The translations under genes and the position numbers were made by a program. The notes beneath the pieces were generated by a model that made no database searches, was not told the DNA's origin, and saw only the letters and a list, made by a program, of their open reading frames with translations. Below are positions 25,531 through 58,143 of a DNA stretch of 64,000 nt, in pieces (within the stretch, counting starts at the first letter, position 1; every line of letters begins with the position of its first letter). Source of the DNA: Candidatus Latescibacterota bacterium (GTDB lineage Bacteria; Latescibacterota; UBA2968; UBA8231); NCBI GenBank assembly GCA_965248265.1, contig CBDFJF010000001.1, positions 2,240,001 through 2,304,000 on the forward strand, written 5' to 3'.

Positions 25531-25937
25531 GCAGGAGCGGTTTGGGTGATCGCGCTACCGGCTTGGAGGTCTACGGCTTCCATCCGGGGTGAGGAAAGTC
25601 CGAGCTCCGCAGGACAGGATGCTGGGTAACTCCCAGGGGGGGCGACCCCACAGATAGTGCCACAGAAAAAATACCGCCTGTCGGCACGCCTCGTTGCGAC
25701 CGATAGGTAAGGGTGAAAAGGTGAGGTAAGAGCTCACCGCGTCTCCGGCGACGGAGGCGGCATGGTAAACCTCATCCGGAGCAAGGCCAAATAGGGGAGG
25801 AGAGGTGGTCCGCCTCGTTAACTCCCGGGTAGGCCGCACCGAGGTCGGCGGGTAACCCCGGCCCCAGATGAATGATCGCCGACGCGAGCGCCAAAGCGTT
25901 CGCGTAGACAGAACTCGGCTTACAGAGCCGCTCCTGC
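25531..25937 (+). ncRNA. rnpB: RNase P RNA (type A)
   Basis: GAGGAAAGTCC, AGTGCCACAGAAA, GGTAAAC, ACAGAACTCGGCTTA; terminal helix gcaggagcgg / ccgctcctgc. Confidence 0.97.
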
Positions 25938-25947
25938 GAAATAAAGC

Positions 25948-26984: not shown

Positions 26985-27818
26985 ATGAGCCAGACGACCT
27001 TCCGTCAGAAGTTGGCAGCGGCCTCTGTCCAAAATGAATCCCTGCTCTGTGTCGGGCTGGACCCGGTGGTCGAGAGGCTGCCGTCCGCCATGCTCACTGA
27101 AGCCGATCCTGTATTGCGTTTCTGCGGCGAGATCATTGAGGCGACGTCGGATCTGGTTTGTGCCTACAAGCCGAACTTTGCCTTCTTCGGTGCCCTGGGA
27201 GAAGGCGGCTGGCGCACCCTGGAATCCACCCTGGAGCGAATTCCCCCGCATATTCCCGTGATCCTGGACGCCAAGGTCGGCGACATCGGCAACACTGCCC
27301 GGCAGTACGCCCGCATGTTCTTCGAGCGTCTCGGTGCCGATGCCCTGACCGTTAACCCCTACATGGGGCACGACGCCGTGGAGCCATTCCTCGCCTATGG
27401 CGACCGCGGGGTCTTCCTGGTGTGCTTGACTTCGAACCCGGGGTCGGCCGATTTCCAGACGCTTCGAGTCGACGACGAAATGCTCTATCACTCCGTGGCG
27501 CGACGGGCAGCGGCTTGGGACCAGGATGCCGGAAACTGCGGACTGGTCGTCGGCGCCACGAAAGCAGAAACCCTCATCGAAGTGCGTCAACTGGCCCCGG
27601 AGCTTCCACTGCTGGTCCCCGGAATCGGCACCCAGGGCGGCGATCTCGAAGCCGTCGTCAACAACGGCCAGGATGCGGCCGGAGGCGGCCTTGTCATCAA
27701 CGCCTCCCGGAGCATCATGTACGCCTCCTCCGAGGCCGATTTCGGCACTGCCGCCCGCTCGGCAGCAACCACCATGCGGGCCGACATCAATAGTCTGCGG
27801 CAGCCTGCCACCGCCTAG
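26985..27818 (+). CDS. pyrF: orotidine-5'-phosphate decarboxylase
   Basis: LCVGLDP, YKPNFAFF, LDAKVGDIGNT, TVNPYMG, LVPGIGTQGG, NASRSI. Confidence 0.97.
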   Translation: MSQTTFRQKLAAASVQNESLLCVGLDPVVERLPSAMLTEADPVLRFCGEIIEATSDLVCAYKPNFAFFGALGEGGWRTLESTLERIPPHIPVILDAKVGDIGNTARQYARMFFERLGADALTVNPYMGHDAVEPFLAYGDRGVFLVCLTSNPGSADFQTLRVDDEMLYHSVARRAAAWDQDAGNCGLVVGATKAETLIEVRQLAPELPLLVPGIGTQGGDLEAVVNNGQDAAGGGLVINASRSIMYASSEADFGTAARSAATTMRADINSLRQPATA

Positions 27819-27912
27819 CACAGCGGCCACTGCTTCGTTGCCAGCGCTCTGTATGAGGGCTATTTTCATGGGTCCTGCTTGGAGCGCCGGTCAACTCCAT
27901 CAAGGACGAATT

Positions 27913-27990
27913 CGGGGTGTAGCGCAGTCCGGTTAGCGCGCCTGCTTTGGGAGCAGGGGGTCGCCGGTTCGAATCCGGCCACCCCGACCA
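27913..27990 (+). tRNA. tRNA-Pro(TGG)
   Basis: CGGGGTG/CACCCCG stem; CCTGC-TTTGGGA-GCAGG; encoded CCA. Confidence 0.96.
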
Positions 27991-28059
27991 TCTTGCCATC
28001 GTTTCAAACGAGTAGTTGCTTGTCCTGGGTAGATCGACACGGCTGTGCCGACCGGTTAT

Positions 28060-28136
28060 GTGCCCATAGCTCAGGTGGATAGAGCATCTGCCTTCTAAGC
28101 AGAATGTCCCAGGTTCGAGTCCTGGTGGGCACGCCA
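28060..28136 (+). tRNA. tRNA-Arg(TCT)
   Basis: GTGCCCA/TGGGCAC stem; TCTGC-CTTCTAA-GCAGA; encoded CCA. Confidence 0.96.
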
Positions 28137-28155
28137 CGCAAAACGATGTAGTGAA

Positions 28156-28366
28156 GCAACAATGATATGTTGGTTGTGCCGGAGGCACGGCTACAACCCC
28201 GACAGTGCTGCTTACCGTACGGAGGTATAGCTACAAGCGAAGCAACGATGTTACTGGTCGTGCCGGAGGCATGGCTAAATCGCAACGGCGCTGCTGGCTG
28301 TACGGAGGCATAGCTACAGGTGTTGCAAAAGCAACAATGTTACTGGTCGCGCCGGAGGCGTGACTA
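28156..28366 (+). repeat. five degenerate ~40-50-nt units, each with a CGGAG-loop hairpin
   Basis: Units approximate GCAACRRYGYTRCTGGYYGYR(C)CGGAGGYRYRRCTA. Confidence 0.85.
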
Positions 28367-28370
28367 TAGT

Positions 28371-28448
28371 GGTGGGTGTAGCTCAGTTGGTTAGAGCGCC
28401 AGGTTGTGGCCCTGGAGGTCGCGGGTTCGACTCCCGTCACTCACCCCA
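28371..28448 (+). tRNA. tRNA-His(GTG) with encoded G-1
   Basis: G-GTGGGTG...CCAGG-TTGTGGC-CCTGG...CACTCAC-C-CCA. Confidence 0.96.
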
Positions 28449-28457
28449 TCCCCATGC

Positions 28458-28522
28458 CGGCCTTCTGTGACCGACTCGCGAACTGAGTACTCGCGGGTAC
28501 GCGGAAGGCCGAGCTTGTTTTT
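28458..28522 (+). terminator. branched hairpin plus T-tract between tRNA-His and the NusG paralog
   Basis: cggccttc...gaaggccg followed by agcttgtttttg. Confidence 0.5.
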
Positions 28523-28548
28523 GCGTCACCAGGGAGACGGAAACCGCA

Positions 28549-29136
28549 ATGAGTTCGGCCGAGTCGCTTGGCCCCGAATACGAACGTGTGGAAGCTGAAG
28601 CCGGTCGCCTTTTCGTGCCCGGTTCGGATGGTCGGGAGTGGTACCTGTTCCACAGCCGGCCCCGTTGCGAGAAGAAGGCCGCGGACGCCTGTCGTGATTT
28701 CTCGCTCAGCCACTACCTGCCCTTGCGGCAAAGCCCGGGGCGCAAGCGCAAGGGCCAGCGGCAATACAGCTTCGAAGTCCCCTTGTTTCCGGGTTATCTG
28801 TTCGGCTGTTGCAATCTGCAGGAACGCACCCAGTTGATGCGCCGAGGATTCTTCGTGCGCTGGATCGAGGTCGTCGACCAGGCCAGGTTGCTCGAGGAAC
28901 TCAAGAGCGTCTACCTGGCCAGCAACCAGGGTATCAGCCTGCTGCTCTATCCGATGTTGAAAAGAGGCCAGACCGTGCGGGTGGTGCGGGGACCATTGAC
29001 CGGTTTGTACGGCAAAGTATCCCGGCGCAAACGCAGCTTCCGACTCGTCCTCAATGTCGCCTGTCTGGACACGGCCGTGGCCTGTGAATTAGACATGGAT
29101 GACGTTGAAGTTGTGGATGCGCAAGCCCTGGAATAG
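28549..29136 (+). CDS. NusG-paralog transcription antiterminator (UpxY/LoaP/RfaH-like)
   Basis: NGN domain WYLFHSRPRCEKK...YLPL...PLFPGYLF and KOW domain GQTVRVVRGPLTGLYG. Confidence 0.9.
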   Translation: MSSAESLGPEYERVEAEAGRLFVPGSDGREWYLFHSRPRCEKKAADACRDFSLSHYLPLRQSPGRKRKGQRQYSFEVPLFPGYLFGCCNLQERTQLMRRGFFVRWIEVVDQARLLEELKSVYLASNQGISLLLYPMLKRGQTVRVVRGPLTGLYGKVSRRKRSFRLVLNVACLDTAVACELDMDDVEVVDAQALE

Positions 29137-32100
29137 ATGTTGGCTCCGAGGGACCTTTCGACTATCTTTGGCGGCGATTCGGTCGATCCATACATGACTC
29201 AATACCTCATCCAAAACCTCATTCATACTCGAGTGCTGCGCGGCACCGCGCGAAATCGTACTGCCCCCACGCAGGGGTACGGCGGCGTTCCGCTTTTCCG
29301 CTGGCTCTTTGTGGGTAGTCTATGCGTCGTTCTGTGCGCACCATTAACCGCATGGGCGCAGTCCCTGCAGGACTCCGGGCTGGAGCTGCCGGGGCTCTGG
29401 GCAGGAGAGGCTGCATGGGGTGACTACGACGATGACGGCGATGTCGACCTCGCGCTGATTGGCGAGATCCACCAAGACGGTATCTGCACTCGCATCGCCC
29501 AGATTTATCGAAATGACAGCGGCATTCTCGTAGAAGACGTCGCACAGACTCAACGCCTCTCCGGCGTCTACTTCGGGGACCTAGGCTGGGCGGACTATGA
29601 CAGTGACGGCGACTTGGATCTCGGCATAGTCGGGTGGGACGCCGAAGACATTGAAAGCATGTCGCTTTACCGTAGCGAACCCGGCGGCACACCCGGAGAG
29701 GTCTTGCTCACTTTTGACGTCGAGCAGACCGACGGCACCGAATCCGTGTTCAGCGGCGTGCGCTACGCAACCATGTCGTGGGTAGATTACGACAACGACG
29801 GCGACCTCGATCTGGTGGTCAGCGGTATGGCATCGAATGGCACATCTTTGACCCGCGCGTATAGAAACGAAGATGGACACTTCCAAGAAGATGAGCTTAA
29901 CAGTGAAGCGCTCATCAACGTGCACAACGGAGACCTCGCGTGGGCCGACTACGACAGTGACGGCGATCTCGATCTGGCTCTTTCAGGGGAGACGGTCTTC
30001 GCGGAAGGAGAGATCCCGCGGGTAACTGAATTCTACGCCAATGGCCCGGTCGGGATTTTGGATCTCGACGAAGATGTTCGAGTTGAGCCAGCAGTCAAGG
30101 GCGGATCGCTAGCCTGGGCTGACTACGACACTGATGGCAACCCCGACTTGGCTGTTTCTGGCCGCGACGCCCAGTGGATCTCCATCCTGCAACTTTATCA
30201 GAATCGTCCGGCCGGAGTCTTGAGTCTCGATGGTAGTTTCAACACCAACGTCTCCGCCCTTGACGGGGGACTAGACTGGATCGACTACGACAACGATGGT
30301 TTTCTCGAACTGGCAGTCTCGGGCCGCACGAGACAATCCAACCACGTAGCCTCCGTTTTCGGCAACAACGATGGCACCGTCACAAGTGCTTCGGTGGAGC
30401 AGAGCCTGGTAGGTCTGGCTGGCGGATCCACGGCGTGGGGTGACTATGATGGTGATGGGCGCGCTGACCTAGTGCTGAGCGGCGTTGACGAGTCTGGCGA
30501 ACGCCGCTCGATCCTTTACGGAAACTTGGGTACGCCAGAGGCTAACCAAGCTCCCGATTCGCCGGAAAGCCTGCAACCGGTCGAGGTCACTAGCTCTCGG
30601 GCGCGGTTCAGTTGGGCACCTGGTGAGGACGTCGAATCAAGCGCTTTGAGTTACGTCATTCGGGTAGGCACCGAGCCTGGCGCAGGTGACATTGTCAGCG
30701 CCGCCACACCGCTGGGTCCGGGTACCGCCGGATTCAAGACCTCCTATGTACTGCATCGATTCTTTCCGCCTGATACCTACTACTGGAGTGTCCGGTCCGT
30801 CGATGGCTCCCTGGCTACATCATCCTTTACACAGGAAGATCAGTTCATAGTCGGTCGTTTCGTTTCGTCAGACCAACTGGTCCGTAGCCTGGACGAGTCC
30901 GCCATGACCTGGGGTGATGTCGATAATGACGGGGACGACGATCTCGTCATCATGGGTAAGAACAGGAGCGGCGAGCCGCAGACGCTTGCATACATCAATC
31001 GTGACGGCGTCATGACGCAAGAACTGAACGTCGGACTCAAACCGCTCCAAAAGGGCGATCTGGCCTGGGGTGACTATGACAACGACGGTGACCTCGACCT
31101 GATGTCCACTGGCGAGGACCCTGCCGGCAATCGTGCCAACCACCTCTATCGCACCGACGTTGTCGGACCTGATGAGGTCGAATTCACCGAGGTGGACACC
31201 ATTCGATCGGGCCTGTCCAACAGCTCGGCCGATTGGGGTGACGTGGACAACGACGGTGATATTGACCTGCTACTCATGGGTCAGAGTGGCCAGGTCGAAG
31301 GCGGACTGCAGCGGTCCTTTACGCAACTTTGGACCAACGATGGGGCCGGTAGCTTTTCCGCGTCGTCTTCCGCCGACTTGGTTGGATTGAACAATGGCGA
31401 GGCCTTGTTCGGGGACGTCGACGGCGATGGTGACCTCGACGTTATGACGACCGGAGTCGATACAGATGGCGATCTCCAGGCAAAATTGTATGAAAACTTC
31501 CTCCCGGACCCATTGCGTGACATAGGATTGTCCGTTCCAGGAATGCAATCCTCCGACATCGCTCTTGGTGATTTCGATCGCGACGGCGATCTGGACTTGG
31601 CGGCCGGTGGATTAACGGCAACGGGGCTGTCCTCGTCGGTCTACACCAATGATGGAGTAGGTGGTTTTGAGCAACTCCTTGGTGTTGACCTACCGGGAAT
31701 CCAAGGAGGTGACTTGGCTTGGGCAGATTTCGACAACGACCAGGACCTCGACCTCGTCCTCGCCGGTAACACAGGTGGCCTCGACAAAGTGCTACAACTT
31801 TACGAGAACACCATTGGCCGCGTCGCACCGGATGCATCCTTCATTCTCTTGAATCTTCCTGTGTTGCAAGGCGTTGATTTCAGCTCGGTATCAATGGCCG
31901 ACATAGACAGCGACGGTGACCTCGATCTAGTCTCTTCCGGCAAGAATTCAGGAGCATCACAATCGACGTCCGTCAATGACAATCTAGCTGCTCAGCAATT
32001 GATCGTGAATAGGCCGCCTGGCACTCCCTCAGACCTAATAGCCGGCGACTCGGCAGACCGCGTTACCCTGAGTTGGCAGGCCGGTTCCGACGACGCTGAC

Positions 32101-35100
32101 CCGCCGGCGGAAAGCCTCACCTACAACGCCCGCGTCGGTACGGTGCCCGAAGCAGACGACGTGCTCTCCGGCGCAATCGCTCTGGGCCATGGGAACATCG
32201 GCGCCCGCCTGATGCGCGACCTCTCTGGTCTGACCAGTGGTACCTATTACTGGTCCGTGCAGACCGTCGACGTCGGTGGCGCACGCTCCGCCTGGCGCGA
32301 CGGTGACCCTTTCATCATCGACACCGTCAATCCTACGCTCGGCGGCTTCTTGTTGAATAAGGATCAGTTTGGATTGGGCCAGACGGTCACCCTGGGACTG
32401 TCGTTTCTGGATGAACACTCCGGAGTCAACGCCAACGCCGAGGTTGCGCCGTTGGTGAAGGCCGAAATAGGTGGTACGCCGTTTCCGTTTTCTCAGTTGC
32501 TGTTTAGTGGCCGCACCTGGAGTGGTGAACTGGAGGTCACCGCGGACATGCCTTCCGGCGAAGCTGTGTTGTCCGTATCCGGTCTGGTGGACCTGAAGGG
32601 CAACTCTCTGGCCGACACGGTCATCGACACCTTTGTCGTTGACACGGATCTGCCGGTCATCGTCGATCGCCTGCCATCAGAGGATGCCACCGGGGTAGCC
32701 CAGAGCGCCACAGAGATTGCGATCGGATTCTCCGAAGCCATCGACCCGGCTACAATCACGGTCGACAACTTCGCCGTGACGCGAGCCAATATCCCCGTCC
32801 CGCTGAGAATCGAGCGGCCAGCAGACACGTCGGACACGGTCACCCTGATTTTCGAGGAGACGCTGCGACCGGGATCGCTCTACAACGTCGAGGTGTCGGC
32901 GGCGATTCAGGATCTGGCCGCGAACCGGCCGGCCGACGCCATTTCCTGGAGCTTTTCCACCCAGATTCCGCAGCTCACGGCGACGGATCCCATGGCGGAG
33001 AGTACCGATGTCCCCCTTGATGATGGCCGTCTGAGCGCCACCTTCGACTCGGGACTGGATGTGTCTGCCCTCACCGACGCCATCGAAATCCTGCGCGACG
33101 AACAGGCGGTCGATCTGCGCGACGACGCCGTCTTCGACACCGAGACCAACACCCTCTCCTTCGAGATCGACGAAGGCCTGTTGCCCGGGAGCCGCTATCG
33201 CGTCGTCCTCTCCGGCCTTTTGGCCGGACCGCTGGGCGCCGTCAGTCAGGGCGATTTTGACTGGCGCTTCACTACCGCGGTGCCGCAGATCTCGAGCCTG
33301 ACCCCCGCCAACGGCGACACCACCGTGTCCGTCGAAGACGACGACATCAGGGCCATCTTCGACCAACGATTGGATCCTGTGGCCGCCCTCACCGCCAGCA
33401 ATATCCGCGTGACCGAGCAAGGGTTGCCGATCGAGACTGACGACGTAGAGTACAATCCCGACACCGGGTCATTGAGCTTTTCACCTGAAGATGGATTGAA
33501 AGCCGGCACGCGCTATGCCGTGACCATTGATGGATCCGTGGGTGGCCTGCTGCGTCAGGAAATCGGTGACTACTCCTGGGACTTCAGCACGGCCGTGCCC
33601 ATGGTCGAGAGTACCGCCCCTCTGGGCGGCGAGATCGTCAGCACCGCCGATCTGACAGCGGCAACGGTTCAGTTTTCCGTGCCACTCGACGACGACCAGG
33701 TCATTCCAGCGAACTTCATTCTCCTGCGTGAGGGCGCTGCCGTTTCGCTGCGAGAAGGAGACCCCGTTGTCCTGGGCCCAGGCCTGTATGGCTTGGCAGA
33801 GACGGATGGTTGGAAGGTCGGCAGCTCCTACGCCATCAGCATTGCCACGACCGTCCAGGGACCGCTTGGCCCAGGGCAGGTCTTGGGGTGGCAGTTTCAG
33901 ACCACCGTCCCCGATACCATCTCCGTGAGTCCTGCCGCCGGCTCGGACGACGTCGATGTGGGCATCTCCGGCATCACTGCCTTGTTCGATGATCTCATCG
34001 ACGAAGGGGCGTTGCAAGCCGAGGGCAATGTCGTCCTCGCGCGTGAAGGGCGTCCGATCGAGATCACCGATCCAATCGGCTACGATCGCGCCGCCGGGGA
34101 GGTGACGATTCCAGTCAGTGATCTCAGAGCCGGAACACCCTACCAGGTGCTCATTGCCTCTGATGTGGCCGGGCCACGTGCGGCCGGAGAATTCCGTTGG
34201 GGGTTCAGCACCCGCATCCCGACTATAGCGTCGACGGTGCCCCCCGATAACTCGTCGATTGCCGCGGGACCTCGCCGTATTCAGCTCATTTTTTCCAGCA
34301 ACGTCGATGAAAGGCTGGCACGCGACCCCGATAACTACCGCCTGACCAGTGGCGGACAATCAATCGAACTGACCGCCGCCGAATTCCTCTACGATGATGG
34401 CAGCTTCACCGTCAGTCTTCCCGAAATCGAATTTTTGTCTGGAACGGGTTACGACCTGATCGTCAATTCCCGTCTGGGCGGACCGCTGGCTCAGCGCCCC
34501 GATGACGAATTCCGTTTCCAGACAGATTTACCGACGGTTGTTGAGACAGAACCGGTCGCCGCATCTGAGGGAGTCGTGACGAGTCATCCGCCCATCAGGC
34601 TGGTTTTTTCGGGCCCCGTGGCCAATCAGGACGCCACCGGGTTTCAATTGCGGGCACGTCCGCTTGCGCAGGCATTGGCAAACAGCGATGCGCCATTCGG
34701 ACTCCTGTCGATCGCAGGGTTTGGCCTGGATCCGACAGGCTCCGAAGTAAACTTCGCTCCTGAAGGCGGCTTCCGACCCTTCACTGAATATCAGGTTCTT
34801 GTGGATCCCAGCGTATTCGGTCAATTGGCCATAGACGGCTTCACCTTGGCCTTCAGCACGGCAGCGCGGATCGGCAATACGGCAAGCGGCGGCACGATTT
34901 CCAATGCGGACCGATCAGTGGAGCTCTATTTCCCTCCGAACGCGCTCTCTGGAGGTGTGGATGGCGAGGTCGTCATCCAGTCGCTTGAGGCAACTGATGC
35001 CGGCAAGGTGATCACCGTAAAGCCAACGCAGGCCACGCTCACACAGATTGGTCAGGCTTGGGAGATAGACGGGCTGGGAGCCAGCCTGATGAAACCTGCT

Positions 35101-35604
35101 ACCCTGACGATGCGCTACACCGATCAGGAACTCGGCAGCCTCAACGCCGCCCGGCTCGGCATATTCAGGCTCGACGGCACCGATTGGGTCCGGATCGGCG
35201 GCACAGCTGATCCAACCGCGGCTCAGGTCCGAACTACAATAGAAGAGTTCGCCGTCTACGCTCTGTTCGAGGACCTCAGTGCCCAGGTCGGCGCTCTCGC
35301 GATCGCCGGCATCGAAGTGCAACCGCAGGCCTTCGCCCCTTCGGGTGGCCGCGGCAACATGCGGCAGGAGACCGATATCTCCTTCGACTTGTCGGGGCCC
35401 GCTGACGTCACTGTACGCGTTTACAGCGCCTCAGGCAGGCTCGAGCGCGTCATCGCTCGGGATACCCCGATGGGGCAGGGCCGCAACTCCCTGGTCTGGG
35501 ATGGGCGCGACGAAGACCGCAAGACCGTGGGCAGTGGCCTTTACATCGTCGTCGTCAGTACCGGAGACGAGCAGGCCGAGAAAGTAGTCGCGGTGGTGAG
35601 ATGA
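29137..35604 (+). CDS. giant surface protein: two FG-GAP propellers, each followed by FN3; multiple Big_5-like Ig domains; ZU5/GAIN-like domain; FlgD-Ig C-terminal domain
   Basis: Many WGDYDNDGDLDL repeats; TYYWSV FN3 ends; repeated F...ID..T...L.PG..Y.V.....W.F.T; C-terminal VRVYSASGRLERV...WDGRDE..VGSGLYIV. Start uncertain (29137 or 29194). Confidence 0.85.
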   Translation: MLAPRDLSTIFGGDSVDPYMTQYLIQNLIHTRVLRGTARNRTAPTQGYGGVPLFRWLFVGSLCVVLCAPLTAWAQSLQDSGLELPGLWAGEAAWGDYDDDGDVDLALIGEIHQDGICTRIAQIYRNDSGILVEDVAQTQRLSGVYFGDLGWADYDSDGDLDLGIVGWDAEDIESMSLYRSEPGGTPGEVLLTFDVEQTDGTESVFSGVRYATMSWVDYDNDGDLDLVVSGMASNGTSLTRAYRNEDGHFQEDELNSEALINVHNGDLAWADYDSDGDLDLALSGETVFAEGEIPRVTEFYANGPVGILDLDEDVRVEPAVKGGSLAWADYDTDGNPDLAVSGRDAQWISILQLYQNRPAGVLSLDGSFNTNVSALDGGLDWIDYDNDGFLELAVSGRTRQSNHVASVFGNNDGTVTSASVEQSLVGLAGGSTAWGDYDGDGRADLVLSGVDESGERRSILYGNLGTPEANQAPDSPESLQPVEVTSSRARFSWAPGEDVESSALSYVIRVGTEPGAGDIVSAATPLGPGTAGFKTSYVLHRFFPPDTYYWSVRSVDGSLATSSFTQEDQFIVGRFVSSDQLVRSLDESAMTWGDVDNDGDDDLVIMGKNRSGEPQTLAYINRDGVMTQELNVGLKPLQKGDLAWGDYDNDGDLDLMSTGEDPAGNRANHLYRTDVVGPDEVEFTEVDTIRSGLSNSSADWGDVDNDGDIDLLLMGQSGQVEGGLQRSFTQLWTNDGAGSFSASSSADLVGLNNGEALFGDVDGDGDLDVMTTGVDTDGDLQAKLYENFLPDPLRDIGLSVPGMQSSDIALGDFDRDGDLDLAAGGLTATGLSSSVYTNDGVGGFEQLLGVDLPGIQGGDLAWADFDNDQDLDLVLAGNTGGLDKVLQLYENTIGRVAPDASFILLNLPVLQGVDFSSVSMADIDSDGDLDLVSSGKNSGASQSTSVNDNLAAQQLIVNRPPGTPSDLIAGDSADRVTLSWQAGSDDADPPAESLTYNARVGTVPEADDVLSGAIALGHGNIGARLMRDLSGLTSGTYYWSVQTVDVGGARSAWRDGDPFIIDTVNPTLGGFLLNKDQFGLGQTVTLGLSFLDEHSGVNANAEVAPLVKAEIGGTPFPFSQLLFSGRTWSGELEVTADMPSGEAVLSVSGLVDLKGNSLADTVIDTFVVDTDLPVIVDRLPSEDATGVAQSATEIAIGFSEAIDPATITVDNFAVTRANIPVPLRIERPADTSDTVTLIFEETLRPGSLYNVEVSAAIQDLAANRPADAISWSFSTQIPQLTATDPMAESTDVPLDDGRLSATFDSGLDVSALTDAIEILRDEQAVDLRDDAVFDTETNTLSFEIDEGLLPGSRYRVVLSGLLAGPLGAVSQGDFDWRFTTAVPQISSLTPANGDTTVSVEDDDIRAIFDQRLDPVAALTASNIRVTEQGLPIETDDVEYNPDTGSLSFSPEDGLKAGTRYAVTIDGSVGGLLRQEIGDYSWDFSTAVPMVESTAPLGGEIVSTADLTAATVQFSVPLDDDQVIPANFILLREGAAVSLREGDPVVLGPGLYGLAETDGWKVGSSYAISIATTVQGPLGPGQVLGWQFQTTVPDTISVSPAAGSDDVDVGISGITALFDDLIDEGALQAEGNVVLAREGRPIEITDPIGYDRAAGEVTIPVSDLRAGTPYQVLIASDVAGPRAAGEFRWGFSTRIPTIASTVPPDNSSIAAGPRRIQLIFSSNVDERLARDPDNYRLTSGGQSIELTAAEFLYDDGSFTVSLPEIEFLSGTGYDLIVNSRLGGPLAQRPDDEFRFQTDLPTVVETEPVAASEGVVTSHPPIRLVFSGPVANQDATGFQLRARPLAQALANSDAPFGLLSIAGFGLDPTGSEVNFAPEGGFRPFTEYQVLVDPSVFGQLAIDGFTLAFSTAARIGNTASGGTISNADRSVELYFPPNALSGGVDGEVVIQSLEATDAGKVITVKPTQATLTQIGQAWEIDGLGASLMKPATLTMRYTDQELGSLNAARLGIFRLDGTDWVRIGGTADPTAAQVRTTIEEFAVYALFEDLSAQVGALAIAGIEVQPQAFAPSGGRGNMRQETDISFDLSGPADVTVRVYSASGRLERVIARDTPMGQGRNSLVWDGRDEDRKTVGSGLYIVVVSTGDEQAEKVVAVVR

Positions 35605-47810: not shown

Positions 47811-47872
47811 CCGGTGTGGTGGGTTGACGAACCGGCGGACCGGCTTAGCTTTTGATTTCGTTGAAATTTATC

Positions 47873-47949
47873 GCACCCATAGCTCAATTGGATAGAGCAC
47901 CTGACTACGGATCAGGAGGTTTGGGGTTCGAATCCCTATGGGTGCACCA
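47873..47949 (+). tRNA. tRNA-Arg(ACG); island integration site
   Basis: GCACCCA/TGGGTGC stem; CCTGA-CTACGGA-TCAGG; encoded CCA. Confidence 0.96.
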
Positions 47950-48039
47950 TTTATAAGCAGTAAGAAAACAGGCACTTACGCCGTCTTTTCTGACGAGATG
48001 CAAGTGCCTTTGACCTGCCCCCGTCGTTTGGGCCAAGTG

Positions 48040-55381: not shown

Positions 55382-55915
55382 CGTCGTGCCGATTCCGACA
55401 TCCCCCTCGCCCGTCATGACCAGATTCTCAGTTCCGCCCCACCCTTCAGTAGTCCCGATTGTAAGGGAGCGGCTCGCATCTGCTGCGTTGTAGGTCCCGA
55501 TCATGGTGAAACCCTCATTGGCCCCAGAGCTCTTGCCCAATGTGAGATACGTGTACTGGCCGTTTGTCAATCCGGAATTGAGGATGTGAACTCCGTTGTT
55601 TGCCGCCGGTTTGACATCCAGGATTGCACCCGGTGACGTCGTGCCGATTCCGACATCCCCCTCGCCCGTCATGACCAGATTCTCAGTTCCGCCCCACCCT
55701 TCAGTAGTCCCGATTGTAAGGGAGCGGCTCGCATCTGCTGCGTTGTAGGTCCCGATCATGGTGAAACCCTCATTGGCCCCAGAGCTCTTGCCCAATGTGA
55801 GATACGTGTACTGGCCGTTTGTCAATCCGGAATTGAGGATGTGAACTCCGTTGTTTGCCGCCGGTTTGACATCCAGGATTGCACCCGGTGACGTCGTGCC
55901 GATTCCGACATCCCC
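55382..55915 (-). repeat. 255-bp (85-aa) tandem duplication, identical by eye, inside the fibre gene
   Basis: Units start at 55382 and 55637, with a partial third at 55892. Confidence 0.92.
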
Positions 55916-58143
55916 GTTCACTGTCAACCCACCCGCTCCGGCGATATCAACCGCCCCGTTGTCCGCGGTGATGGTACGACCAGCTCCCGCAGTGGGCTCG
56001 TCGTAAGCTCCGTCGAGCGTGTTCTGGGTGTCGGTATCAGTGTCTGTGTCCGTAGCGTTGAAGGTCAGGGTGTTGCCCGAAGGTGTAATGGCCATGTTGG
56101 TACCGGCAGCCAGGGTCACGGCATCCGTGAGGCTGTTCAATGTCTTGACCACGGCCCCTGCGGCCACATCACCGGCCACTATGGTCGCATTGGCAATCTC
56201 AGCCGAAGTGACGGCATTCGCGGCGATCTTTGCCGTCGTGACCGCACCAGCGGCCAGTTCCGTACTGCCGACTCCGCCTGCAGCGATATCGAGGGTTACA
56301 TCACCGGTGGTGCCGCCATTGGCAAGGCCTGTACCTGCCGTTACGCCAGTAATATCACCCCCAGCCGTGGCGTCGATGGTAAGCGTGTTACCGGCCGGGG
56401 TGATGTTGATATTAGATCCTGCCGCCAGGGTGACGGCGTCAACCAGGGTATTAACACTGGTGACCACCTGACTGGTCGCCAGGTCGGCCGCCACGATGGT
56501 GCCATCACCGATCTTAGCCGAAGTGACTGCATCAGCGGCCAGCTCGGCATTGCCGACGGCACCAGCCGCGATTTCATCGGCATCCACGGAATCAGTCGCC
56601 AGGTCGGCTGCCGAAATGGTGCCATCGGCGATCTTGGCACTCGTTACGGCATTGGTACCCAGATCAGCCTCCGCGATCGCGCTGTCGATGATCTTGGCAC
56701 CTGTGATCGAATTGTCTGCTATATCGCCAGTACCCACCTCATTTCCGCCGGTGGTCGAGATCGTGATGTTCTGGCCGACTTGAACGATGTCAATGTTGGC
56801 ACCCTCAAGCAGGGTTACGTCGTTGGTGGCCGAGTTGAGACTCAATACTGCTGTGTCGGTGGCCAGCTTAGCTGCCGTCACCGCGGCGTCTTGGATCTTG
56901 GTATTGGACACGGCGCCATCTGCCAGTTCGGAATTGCCCACCGCATCAGTGGCTATCTGCGTCGCCGTTACCGCGTCGGATGCCAGGTCAGCCGCAGCAA
57001 TCGTGCCGTCCGTGATCTTTGCAGAGGTCACCGCATTGTCAGCCAATTCAGATCCGGCTGCAGTGATCGTCACCGTATTGCCTACAGTGGCCACGGTAAC
57101 GTTGTCACCACCCGCGATGGTTACGCCGTCGGTGACGGTGTTGACGCTCGTCACCACTGCTCCCGCTGCAATGTCGGCCGAGCCTATGCTGCCATCGGCG
57201 ATCTTGGCTGCAGTCACGGCGTCGTCGGCAAGCTCTTCTCCCGTGATCGCTGCATCGGCAATCTTGGCGTTGGTTACTGAGTCTTCCGCAAGCTGCTCCG
57301 TACCCACGGCGTTGGCAGCGATCTTATCCGCAGTCACCGCGCCGTCTTCGACACTCTTGGCGTAGAGGCTGTAGGGAGCCGCTACCAGTGCAATGCGCGG
57401 CGACAACTCATCACCGACACCTATCGAGATGCCCAGGTAGTAGGGCCGGTCAAAGGGCACCGAATCCAAGGACTCGGTCGCTCCCAGTACCACGCTGAAG
57501 AGCCCCTTGCTCGTCGTCACCGTCCGCGTCGTCTCCCATACCCCAGTGCCCCCTGTGGATTGTTCGTACAGGCTGAAAGTGATCTCATGATCGCCATCTG
57601 CGACCACATCGCCAGCGGCGTCAGTCAGGTAGCCCATATAGGAGACGGTCTTGGGCACGGGCTCCTGGGCGTGGGCGATCGATAGCGAAATTGCAAGGCA
57701 AAGTGAGATAGCAAGCAGGGGTTTCATCACAACATCTCCTGGGTGAGATTCTTCTTGCGAGCATTTACAGGCTGGTGCCGACACCACACCATAGTGACGG
57801 GGGTGATGGTACGGAGATTGTGAGAGAGGACCAAGCAGAGGATAGGACAGGAGCTACAGGCTATCTGGCTGTTACAGTGCGAGGTAACACGCCATATAGA
57901 TATGGGTCCCCACTTTCACGCGATCGCGGAGAAGGGGTACGGGCTTGGGGGGCAGGCACTGGTGTCCACCTGGTGCCTTATTCTATATTAATGGGTGTTA
58001 ATCGAATTGAATGAGGGAATCGCCCCTCCAGAGGTAGGCTCCTAAATCAGTACTGCGCATAGGGATACGAAACCAGTCTGGTCTGACTACGGATCAGGAG
58101 GTTTGGGGTTCGAATCCCTATGGGTGCACCAGAAATACTGGTC

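Follow-up and report, generated by a model that had tools for sequence, protein, structure and literature searches.

A tandem array of hairpin units between tRNA-Arg and tRNA-His in a Latescibacterota genome, likely a young expansion of a tRNA-operon spacer

Repeated units are known from the spacers of tRNA operons in Escherichia coli. The rttR RNA is encoded by the repeated unit of the tyrT operon (PMC3318445), and the internal transcribed spacers (ITS) metZ-metW and metW-metV are imperfect repeats, with 4 mismatches in 33 nucleotides (nt), which co-purify with RybB and MicF (PMC4583644). Here we describe a tandem array of hairpin-forming units located between the genes for tRNA-Arg(TCT) and tRNA-His in a 64,000-nt stretch of the genome of Candidatus Latescibacterota bacterium (GenBank assembly GCA_965248265.1, contig CBDFJF010000001.1, positions 2,240,001 to 2,304,000 of the forward strand). 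This whole stretch is referred to as the window, and positions are counted from its first letter. Judged by analogy, the closest known kind of system would be the repeated spacer units of tRNA operons, that is, rttR of tyrT and the ITS of metZ-metW-metV. Like these E. coli repeats, the array consists of imperfect tandem non-tRNA repeats within what looks like a tRNA transcription unit and would be released by tRNA processing. Like the 3'ETS-leuZ (external transcribed spacer) and ITS-metZWV RNAs, it occupies a presumably transcribed tRNA-operon spacer, on the same strand as tRNA-Arg and tRNA-His. Unlike E. coli RtT, however, it matches no Rfam family, RtT included, at E <= 10, and unlike the E. 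coli repeated spacers it has units in which no tRNA-derived segment is seen, a module that is a hairpin with GGA at its apex, and a location between two different tRNAs. The explanation that we favour, with moderate confidence, is that a self-folding hairpin module has expanded in tandem within a tRNA spacer, giving a young and fast-evolving array that would be co-transcribed and excised, with weak RNA-level constraint on one class of units (A), decay of the other (B) and no dedicated partner in evidence.

The 235-nt spacer between the two genes is filled by a tandem repeat at 28154-28366, detected by Tandem Repeats Finder (TRF) with a period of 89, 2.4 copies, 77% matches and a score of 218. 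Each 89-nt unit is composed of two sub-units of about 43 nt, and the array of five sub-units in the order A-B-A-B-A (Table 1), which is the order that the pairwise identities fit (78-88% among A sub-units, 78% between B sub-units and 67-76% between A and B). An initial annotation, made from the sequence of the window, had already placed five alternating units between tRNA-Arg(TCT) and tRNA-His; their location agrees with ARAGORN and TRF, and their alternation is borne out by the sub-unit alignment and the pairwise identities. A small GUUGC-AAAA-GCAAC hairpin lies 3' of the B2 hairpin and bridges into A3. Contigs of two short-read runs that possibly represent the source sample, X1 and X2 (332 nt and 433 nt), cover the whole array with 2 other letters each, which argues that the array is not an assembly artefact.

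Structure predictions separate the A units from the B units. Whole A1, A2 and A3 units fold at -14.2 to -16.0 kcal/mol with z scores of -2.2 to -3.0 (A3, -3.0). On the + strand their hairpin cores reach -12.6, -12.8 and -14.8 kcal/mol, respectively, whereas the reverse complements of these cores attain only -7.1, -4.2 and -9.7 kcal/mol. The 30 base pairs of the A units include 8 G.U and no A.C combinations, because of which the reverse complements fold weakly. This strand asymmetry assigns the predicted A-hairpin structure to RNA of the tRNA sense strand, and not to duplex DNA or to an opposite transcript. Stem differences among A1, A2 and A3 all retain pairing, one U-A to C-G swap among them. 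The B1 and B2 cores are weak (-3.4 and -6.1 kcal/mol; z +0.15 and -0.9). Over the five units, 91.7% of 48 cells of the stems are paired, and all 4 unpaired cells fall in B units; 16 of 500 shuffles and 0 of 6 slid registers attained this degree of pairing, with 4 pairs changed on both sides. Covariation among the five paralogs is thus modest and suggestive. For the spacer as a whole the predicted fold has -89.9 kcal/mol (z -2.6), and in its ensemble B1 and B2 pair with each other rather than locally. The local stem has a probability of 0.79-0.95 in A2, of 0.56-1.0 in A3 and of only 0.05 in A1, where a shifted register is favoured. In place of the five covarying hairpins initially described, three solid hairpins and two decaying ones are thus the more accurate account: A1 to A3 are robust, each with 10 base pairs (bp) and a GGA triloop, while B1 and B2 are weak and the covariation is modest. 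Likewise, the claim that the stems vary and mostly keep pairing holds for every difference among the A units and fails at the four cells of B1 and B2.

Comparison with a close relative, seen only as contigs of run X8, shows how the array changes. A 242-nt contig spans 28176-28332 of the array (157 nt) with 14 substitutions and 6 gap letters; a 142-nt contig spans 27962-28103, including the whole 69-nt spacer between tRNA-Pro and tRNA-Arg, with 2 differences, both within that spacer; and a 7509-nt contig spans 28420-28698 with 23 other letters and 6 gaps. Near the start of the array, 28138-28175 (38 nt) are replaced by 6 unrelated nt and 28137 is joined to 28176, so that A1 loses its leader and its 5' arm. 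The X8 stems tend to remain paired (Table 1). The A2 unit of this relative equals A3 of the present genome, which makes gene conversion an alternative to compensatory selection. The array changes faster than the adjoining Pro-Arg spacer, and its GGAGG loop motif is not inviolate: CGGAGG, initially regarded as invariant, is present in all five aligned sub-units of this genome but is lost from B1 of the X8 relative, which reads GGTGG. In these respects the locus resembles intergenic hairpin minisatellites of the variable-number tandem repeat type, since it would be a young, locus-specific hairpin array in a transcribed spacer and shows, in one partial ortholog, fast indels and unit-level change between close relatives.

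The state of the spacer in more distant relatives points to its growth from a short precursor. Matches to tRNA-His were found in 67 of the 76 genomes of the family, and the loci examined were the 29 best of the 66 relatives having such a match. In 27 of these 29 loci tRNA-Arg(TCT) lies directly 5' of tRNA-His, and the spacer between them measures 13-23 nt in 20 relatives and 38-105 nt in the other 7. The 235-nt spacer of the present genome is the longest seen, corresponding to an approximately tenfold growth. Fifteen of the 27 relatives' spacers were read, and none of these has similarity to the unit. Six of the seven longer spacers (57-105 nt) have unrelated predicted folds of their own, at -18.7 to -27.9 kcal/mol, and for the 38-nt spacer the predicted fold reaches no more than -1.8 kcal/mol. 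One relative (L070) has a 23-nt spacer whose end is identical to the final 10 nt of A3, GACTATAGTG, and all sub-units end in a CTAYA-type variant of this sequence; the module thus seems to have grown from the tRNA-His leader. Many contigs of other organisms in runs X1, X2, X8 and X5, compared over 27800-28700 of the window, also have tRNA-Arg and tRNA-His joined by unrelated spacers of 18-23 nt, and a short Arg-His spacer is the common state in the communities of these runs.

Searches for further copies point to a single locus. A profile of the unit gave five matches at E <= 7.4e-7 in the 7.3-Mb genome (nhmmer), all within the array, followed by a next match at E = 2.4. The array is therefore beyond chance and is not a dispersed repetitive extragenic palindromic (REP) or miniature inverted-repeat transposable element (MITE), the possibility for which a genome-wide search had been proposed at the outset. 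A 21-nt match of B2 at C2:2732481-2732501 (E 0.08) is at chance level. Short GC-rich hairpin units clustered in tandem in a transcribed intergenic region are a feature that the array has in common with REP elements, bacterial interspersed mosaic elements and MITEs, but these are dispersed, whereas here five of five significant genome matches lie at one locus. A covariance model (R1) built from the five sub-units and run across the 76 family genomes, which are also the order-level set, recovered the five units themselves (30.7-59.7 bits) and no convincing match in the 75 relatives. A lone 28-bit match in one relative (G019) lies in a coding-like stretch without a tRNA and is expected by chance over 75 genomes. 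No match to the spacer was obtained by BLAST against 60 relatives. A two-unit pattern found 32 loci in genome_contigs, none with a tRNA within 3 kb and all with R1 scores of at most 13.9 bits, and at least 117 stretches in metagenome_contigs, among which 80 loci were examined and included no related array; the best R1 score among these 80 (18.2 bits) belongs to a coding TTGTGG-type repeat. In viral_contigs, an A-unit pattern found 9 loci, each a single weak match at chance level. Rfam, searched with Infernal as the initial annotation had suggested, returned only the tRNAs in the operon; within the array no known RNA family matched at E <= 10 apart from chance-like matches such as Acido-Lenti-1 (13.5 bits on the minus strand, over 16 of 46 model positions), mir-9418 and sR44, and no non-tRNA family exceeded 14.1 bits. 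On this basis the array appears to have no relative in Rfam 15 or in the collections searched, no literature search having been aimed at novelty, and it appears to be confined to a narrow lineage.

The operon consists of three tRNA genes on the + strand, for tRNA-Pro(TGG), tRNA-Arg(TCT) and tRNA-His(GTG) (ARAGORN). A consensus scan found 2 promoter-like sites against 0.2 expected in shuffles and none in the array itself. The hairpin at 28456-28514 folds at -43.6 kcal/mol (z -3.1), a stability reached by 0 of 200 shuffles, and went uncalled by the consensus scan owing to the loop-size rule of that scan. Pro, Arg, the array and His thus look like one transcription unit, with promoter-like and terminator-like sites at its ends. 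Flanking synteny is kept, the upstream 407-aa gene and a downstream giant FG-GAP/Big_5 protein each being found in 7 of the 29 relatives' loci, which argues against an inserted island.

Table 1. Coordinates of the array, of its operon and of changes in the X8 relative (window numbering).
Feature	Position	Strand	Description
Promoter-like site TTGCCA-17-TATTTT	27838-27866	+	Consensus match, 47 nt 5' of tRNA-Pro; presumed operon start region
tRNA-Pro(TGG)	27913-27990	+	ARAGORN; Rfam tRNA, 70 bits
tRNA-Arg(TCT)	28060-28136	+	CCA encoded; ARAGORN; Rfam tRNA, 69 bits
tRNA-Arg trailer	28137-28153	+	Unique 17-nt start of the spacer (sequence)
Unit A1	28154-28196	+	Hairpin 28171-28193, 10 bp, GGA triloop
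Unit B1	28197-28239	+	Degenerate hairpin at about 28212-28233, 3 mismatched pairs
Unit A2	28240-28282	+	Hairpin 28255-28277, 10 bp including 3 G.U, GGA triloop
Unit B2	28283-28328	+	Weaker hairpin 28295-28316, 7 bp, one mismatch, C-G closing a GGAG tetraloop
Unit A3	28329-28371	+	Hairpin 28344-28366, ending 4 nt before tRNA-His G-1 (28371)
tRNA-His(GTG)	28372-28448	+	ARAGORN; Rfam, 68 bits; encoded G-1 is base 28371
Terminator-like element	28456-28522	+	Long hairpin (28456-28514), then UUGUUUUU, with U-tract; the operon's probable intrinsic terminator
NusG specialised paralog	28549-29136	+	Open reading frame; Pfam NusG and KOW; context, outside the array
X8 substitutions T>C and A>G	28261 and 28271		A2 stem; U-A to C-G, compensatory
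X8 substitution G>A	28274		A2 stem; U.G to U-A
X8 substitution A>G	28214		B1 stem; A.C mismatch repaired
X8 substitution A>T	28223		B1 loop; GGAGG to GGTGG
X8 substitutions	28206, 28280, 28282, 28284		Linkers; no pairing effect
X8 insertion, 5 nt	after 28239		B1/A2 boundary; length change
X8 insertion, 1 nt	after 28277		Just 3' of the A2 hairpin; length change

The favoured explanation, a tandem expansion within a discarded spacer, would proceed as follows. From an ancestral Arg-His spacer of about 13-23 nt, a module of about 43 nt would have arisen, comprising a GCAAC-type leader, a hairpin and the tRNA-His leader ending in CTAYAGTG. A first round of duplication would have turned this module into an A+B pair, and a second round, acting on the pair of about 89 nt, would have produced the order A-B-A-B-A. 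The array would be transcribed from the tRNA-Pro promoter within a Pro-Arg-His precursor and excised jointly by 3'-end maturation of tRNA-Arg and by ribonuclease P (RNase P), which would cleave 5' of G-1 of tRNA-His, between 28370 and 28371. The position of the cut before G-1 follows from established tRNA processing. The excised piece would end in the A3 hairpin and a 4-nt tail, and release of the array through tRNA processing can fairly be expected from the layout of the locus. Constraint at the RNA level may maintain the A hairpins as inert and self-contained folds serving as spacer insulation or as processing punctuation, and the B copies would be older and decaying, the A copies newer. In our judgement the array is, for the most part, tolerated as a passenger of a discarded spacer and has no dedicated trans-acting partner. 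If this is correct, the locus offers a snapshot of a discarded tRNA spacer growing stepwise by tandem duplication, from about 20 nt to 235 nt, in which younger copies have retained RNA-level pairing and older ones have lost it. It would then represent raw material for spacer-derived regulatory RNAs and would not itself be a regulatory discovery.

Several points weigh against the array being a mere passenger. All stem changes among the A units preserve pairing and the X8 relative carries a compensatory change at 28261/28271, which suggests some selection on the hairpin, something unnecessary for a pure passenger; the same pattern could also result from gene conversion between A2 and A3. An excised RNA with a 3'-terminal hairpin could be stable, leaving room for a role in trans. 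Moreover, the transcription, processing sites and abundance of the array RNA are deduced from the sequence. The comparison with X8 relies on a single partial ortholog in which A3 lies outside the coverage, and 9 of its 14 array substitutions are itemised (Table 1). Finally, the ancestral state is drawn from the 29 relatives' loci described above.

Two functional explanations are improbable but come next in weight. The first is a cis-acting processing or stability element, whose units would serve as exonuclease barriers or folding insulators and tune the maturation or relative dosage of tRNA-Arg and tRNA-His; one such element might be A3, which lies 4 nt away from the RNase P site. The strand-specific structure and preserved stems would fit this role, as would the fact that A3 adjoins the tRNA-His leader, and the unrelated hairpins in six of the seven longer spacers of relatives suggest that the position tolerates or favours hairpins. 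However, 20 of the 27 relatives manage on spacers of 13-23 nt, five units exceed the need of such a role, and the B units are decaying.

The second, which we consider just as improbable as the first, is a trans-acting decoy. The A3-capped spacer would accumulate and titrate a factor through its GGAGG apices, and this factor might be CsrA, another protein or the anti-Shine-Dalgarno end of 16S rRNA. Sponge-acting tRNA spacers are known (PMC4583644), and the initial annotation had put forward a CsrA-type sponge, a version that in our estimate is distinctly less probable than the decoy in general. The presence of csrA, on which such a sponge would depend, was confirmed (PF02599, 89.5 bits, C2:3834581-3834739). 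GGA lies at the apex of all three A hairpins, the B loops read ACGGAG, fitting A-N-GGA, and the hairpin spacing of 39-50 nt in the array is within the 10-63 nt that a CsrA dimer can bridge (PMC7652899). Ten Flagellin_N genes are present in the genome, and the leaders of four of the ten carry AAGGAGGT at the ribosome-binding site. These leaders are candidate CsrA sites and have GGAGG in common with the units, but this common GGAGG is simply the Shine-Dalgarno core.

Several observations nevertheless speak against a CsrA sponge. GGA occurs at chance level, 5 times in 235 nt against 6.0 expected, and at least 5 times in 77% of 2000 shuffles. The CsrA consensus obtained by SELEX is RUACARGGAUGU, in which ACA and GGA are invariant (PMC7652899), whereas ACA.GGA and CA.GGA.G are found in none of the five units and A.GGA in two, both of them B units. 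SELEX ligands have mostly hexaloops and stems of at most 4 bp, and very stable structure is possibly disadvantageous (PMC7652899); the A-unit loops are GGA triloops on 10-bp stems, and unit loops overall measure 3-4 nt. The gene fliW lies directly upstream of csrA (pair at C2:3834581-3835277, minus strand) and points to a protein antagonist. PMC7652899 describes an anti-correlation between fliW and the BarA-UvrY systems, by which Csr small RNAs are driven, and regards joint action of FliW and small RNAs on CsrA in any species as still to be determined. CsrA is found in 29 of the 76 family genomes, 28 of which are without the array. Furthermore, one GGAGG is mutated in the X8 relative, where the array is faster-changing than the adjoining spacer, and no Rfam family matches the array. 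Taken together, these points do not support the CsrA-type sponge as initially formulated. Compared with CsrB, CsrC, RsmY and RsmZ, the array is alike in carrying several GGA-apex hairpins on one RNA in a genome with csrA. It differs from them in its chance density of GGA and lack of an ACA-GGA consensus, in its loops of 3-4 nt on 10-bp stems, and in its location inside the Pro-Arg-His unit, where those RNAs are stand-alone genes with their own promoter and terminator. The genome, too, differs from their hosts in being of the fliW-csrA type, and the array is absent from the 28 CsrA-bearing relatives. That a spacer RNA of about 235 nt, released by RNase P and capped by a 3' hairpin, accumulates in this FliW-bearing bacterium as a multivalent decoy for CsrA or another GGAGG-recognising factor is a long shot. 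If true, it would be the first RNA antagonist working together with FliW and the first CsrA sponge to have arisen within a tRNA internal spacer through recent tandem duplication; the array would matter more if the excised RNA were stable and CsrA-bound.

An element acting at the DNA level is very unlikely. The five direct repeats, about 40-50 bp apart, could be iteron- or arm-type binding sites, or an integrative element at the tRNA-Arg 3' end could have left the array as its remnant. The A2 leader AGCAACGATGTTAC (28240-28253) has a 14-nt identity with the Rfam AAC_AAD_leader consensus in its attI-site region, and a partial copy of tRNA-Arg(ACG), at 10.2 kb from the intact gene, points to tRNA-targeted integration elsewhere in the window. 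However, the excess of G.U over A.C (8 to 0) points to RNA and not to duplex DNA or a cruciform. The attI-site match scores only 14.1 bits (E 1.6) and is attributed to chance. When the units were compared with the 57 tRNAs of the genome, the best local alignment scores stayed within the nulls from shuffled units, and flanking synteny is kept, as noted for the 407-aa upstream gene. With no tRNA similarity beyond shuffles and no match to a tRNA model, an origin of the units from a decayed tRNA or an att duplication was rejected. As to the tRNA-Arg(ACG) gene itself (47871-47952), its copy (58053-58134), 10.2 kb downstream, has only the 3' ~52 nt in common with it and is called a tRNA by ARAGORN while falling below the Rfam gathering score. 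The pair bears the signature of what may be an integrated element of about 10 kb flanked by att repeats. Two further repeats lie in that part of the window: a perfect 255-nt tandem duplication at 55382-55891 (2 copies, 100% identity) and 8 copies of a 74-nt repeat, spaced by about 60 nt, at 56160-57238; both are presumably coding repeats in a large gene.

Still less credence can be given to the array as a recruitment element, similar to operon polarity suppressor (ops) elements, for the NusG paralog. The initial annotation had located this gene about 180 nt downstream, and the NusG and KOW domains of Pfam are indeed found in the open reading frame (ORF) at 28549-29136; among NCBIfam models UpxY fits it best, with 61 bits, which fall short of the 100-bit cut-off. 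Proximity speaks for such an element, the array ending at 28366-28371 and the ORF starting at 28549, and some NusG paralogs recognise leader elements that include RNA hairpins. However, orthologs of the paralog with 65-66% identity follow tRNA-His in two relatives, G011 (L045) and G022 (L064), both of which are without the unit; the Arg-His spacer of G011 is 88 nt long and unrelated to the array. In the present genome tRNA-His and the terminator-like hairpin separate array and paralog gene, and five other relatives have a cytidylyltransferase-like gene at the position of the paralog, before a homologous giant protein. The array thus differs from ops and UpxY-leader elements, with which it has neither co-occurrence with the paralog in relatives nor an uninterrupted path to the gene in common. 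It does not appear to be a conserved partner of the NusG paralog, and the suggested loading function was not upheld. The least credible alternative, that the repeats encode a small protein (48-aa ORF at 28167-28313, an open + strand frame with a repeated MLVVPEA motif), is rejected since the X8 relative has the 5-nt and 1-nt insertions inside the frame and the differences between units fit base pairing and not codon conservation, besides which no Shine-Dalgarno sequence precedes the ATG and the frame sits between tRNAs.

Other features of the surroundings deserve mention. A class A bacterial RNase P RNA gene (25534-25938, + strand, 293.9 bits) lies about 2 kb upstream of the tRNA operon, and its product would process the nearby tRNA operon. 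The NusG paralog is followed by a giant 2155-aa FG-GAP/Big_5/fn3 protein, this part of the window, 3' of tRNA-His, being 28449-35604 (+ strand). Linkage of tRNA-His to the giant protein, with either a NusG paralog or a cytidylyltransferase between them, accounts for the 7 of 29 relatives' loci mentioned above, and one idea is that the NusG paralog might help transcription to pass the tRNA terminator and enter the giant gene. A second Arg(TCT)-His pair, which is degenerate, is found outside the window at G000 C2:1057786-1058029 (minus strand). It comprises an Arg-like tRNA, whose anticodon loop has one extra base (ARAGORN 'tRNA-??? ttct'), and a His-like tRNA, in which the T-loop is aberrant and the acceptor contains a mismatch; an unrelated spacer of 89 nt separates the two, and a clean terminator comes next. 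The gene that follows this degenerate pair has an N-terminus which, from our reading of its sequence, presumably resembles a polysaccharide chain-length determinant.

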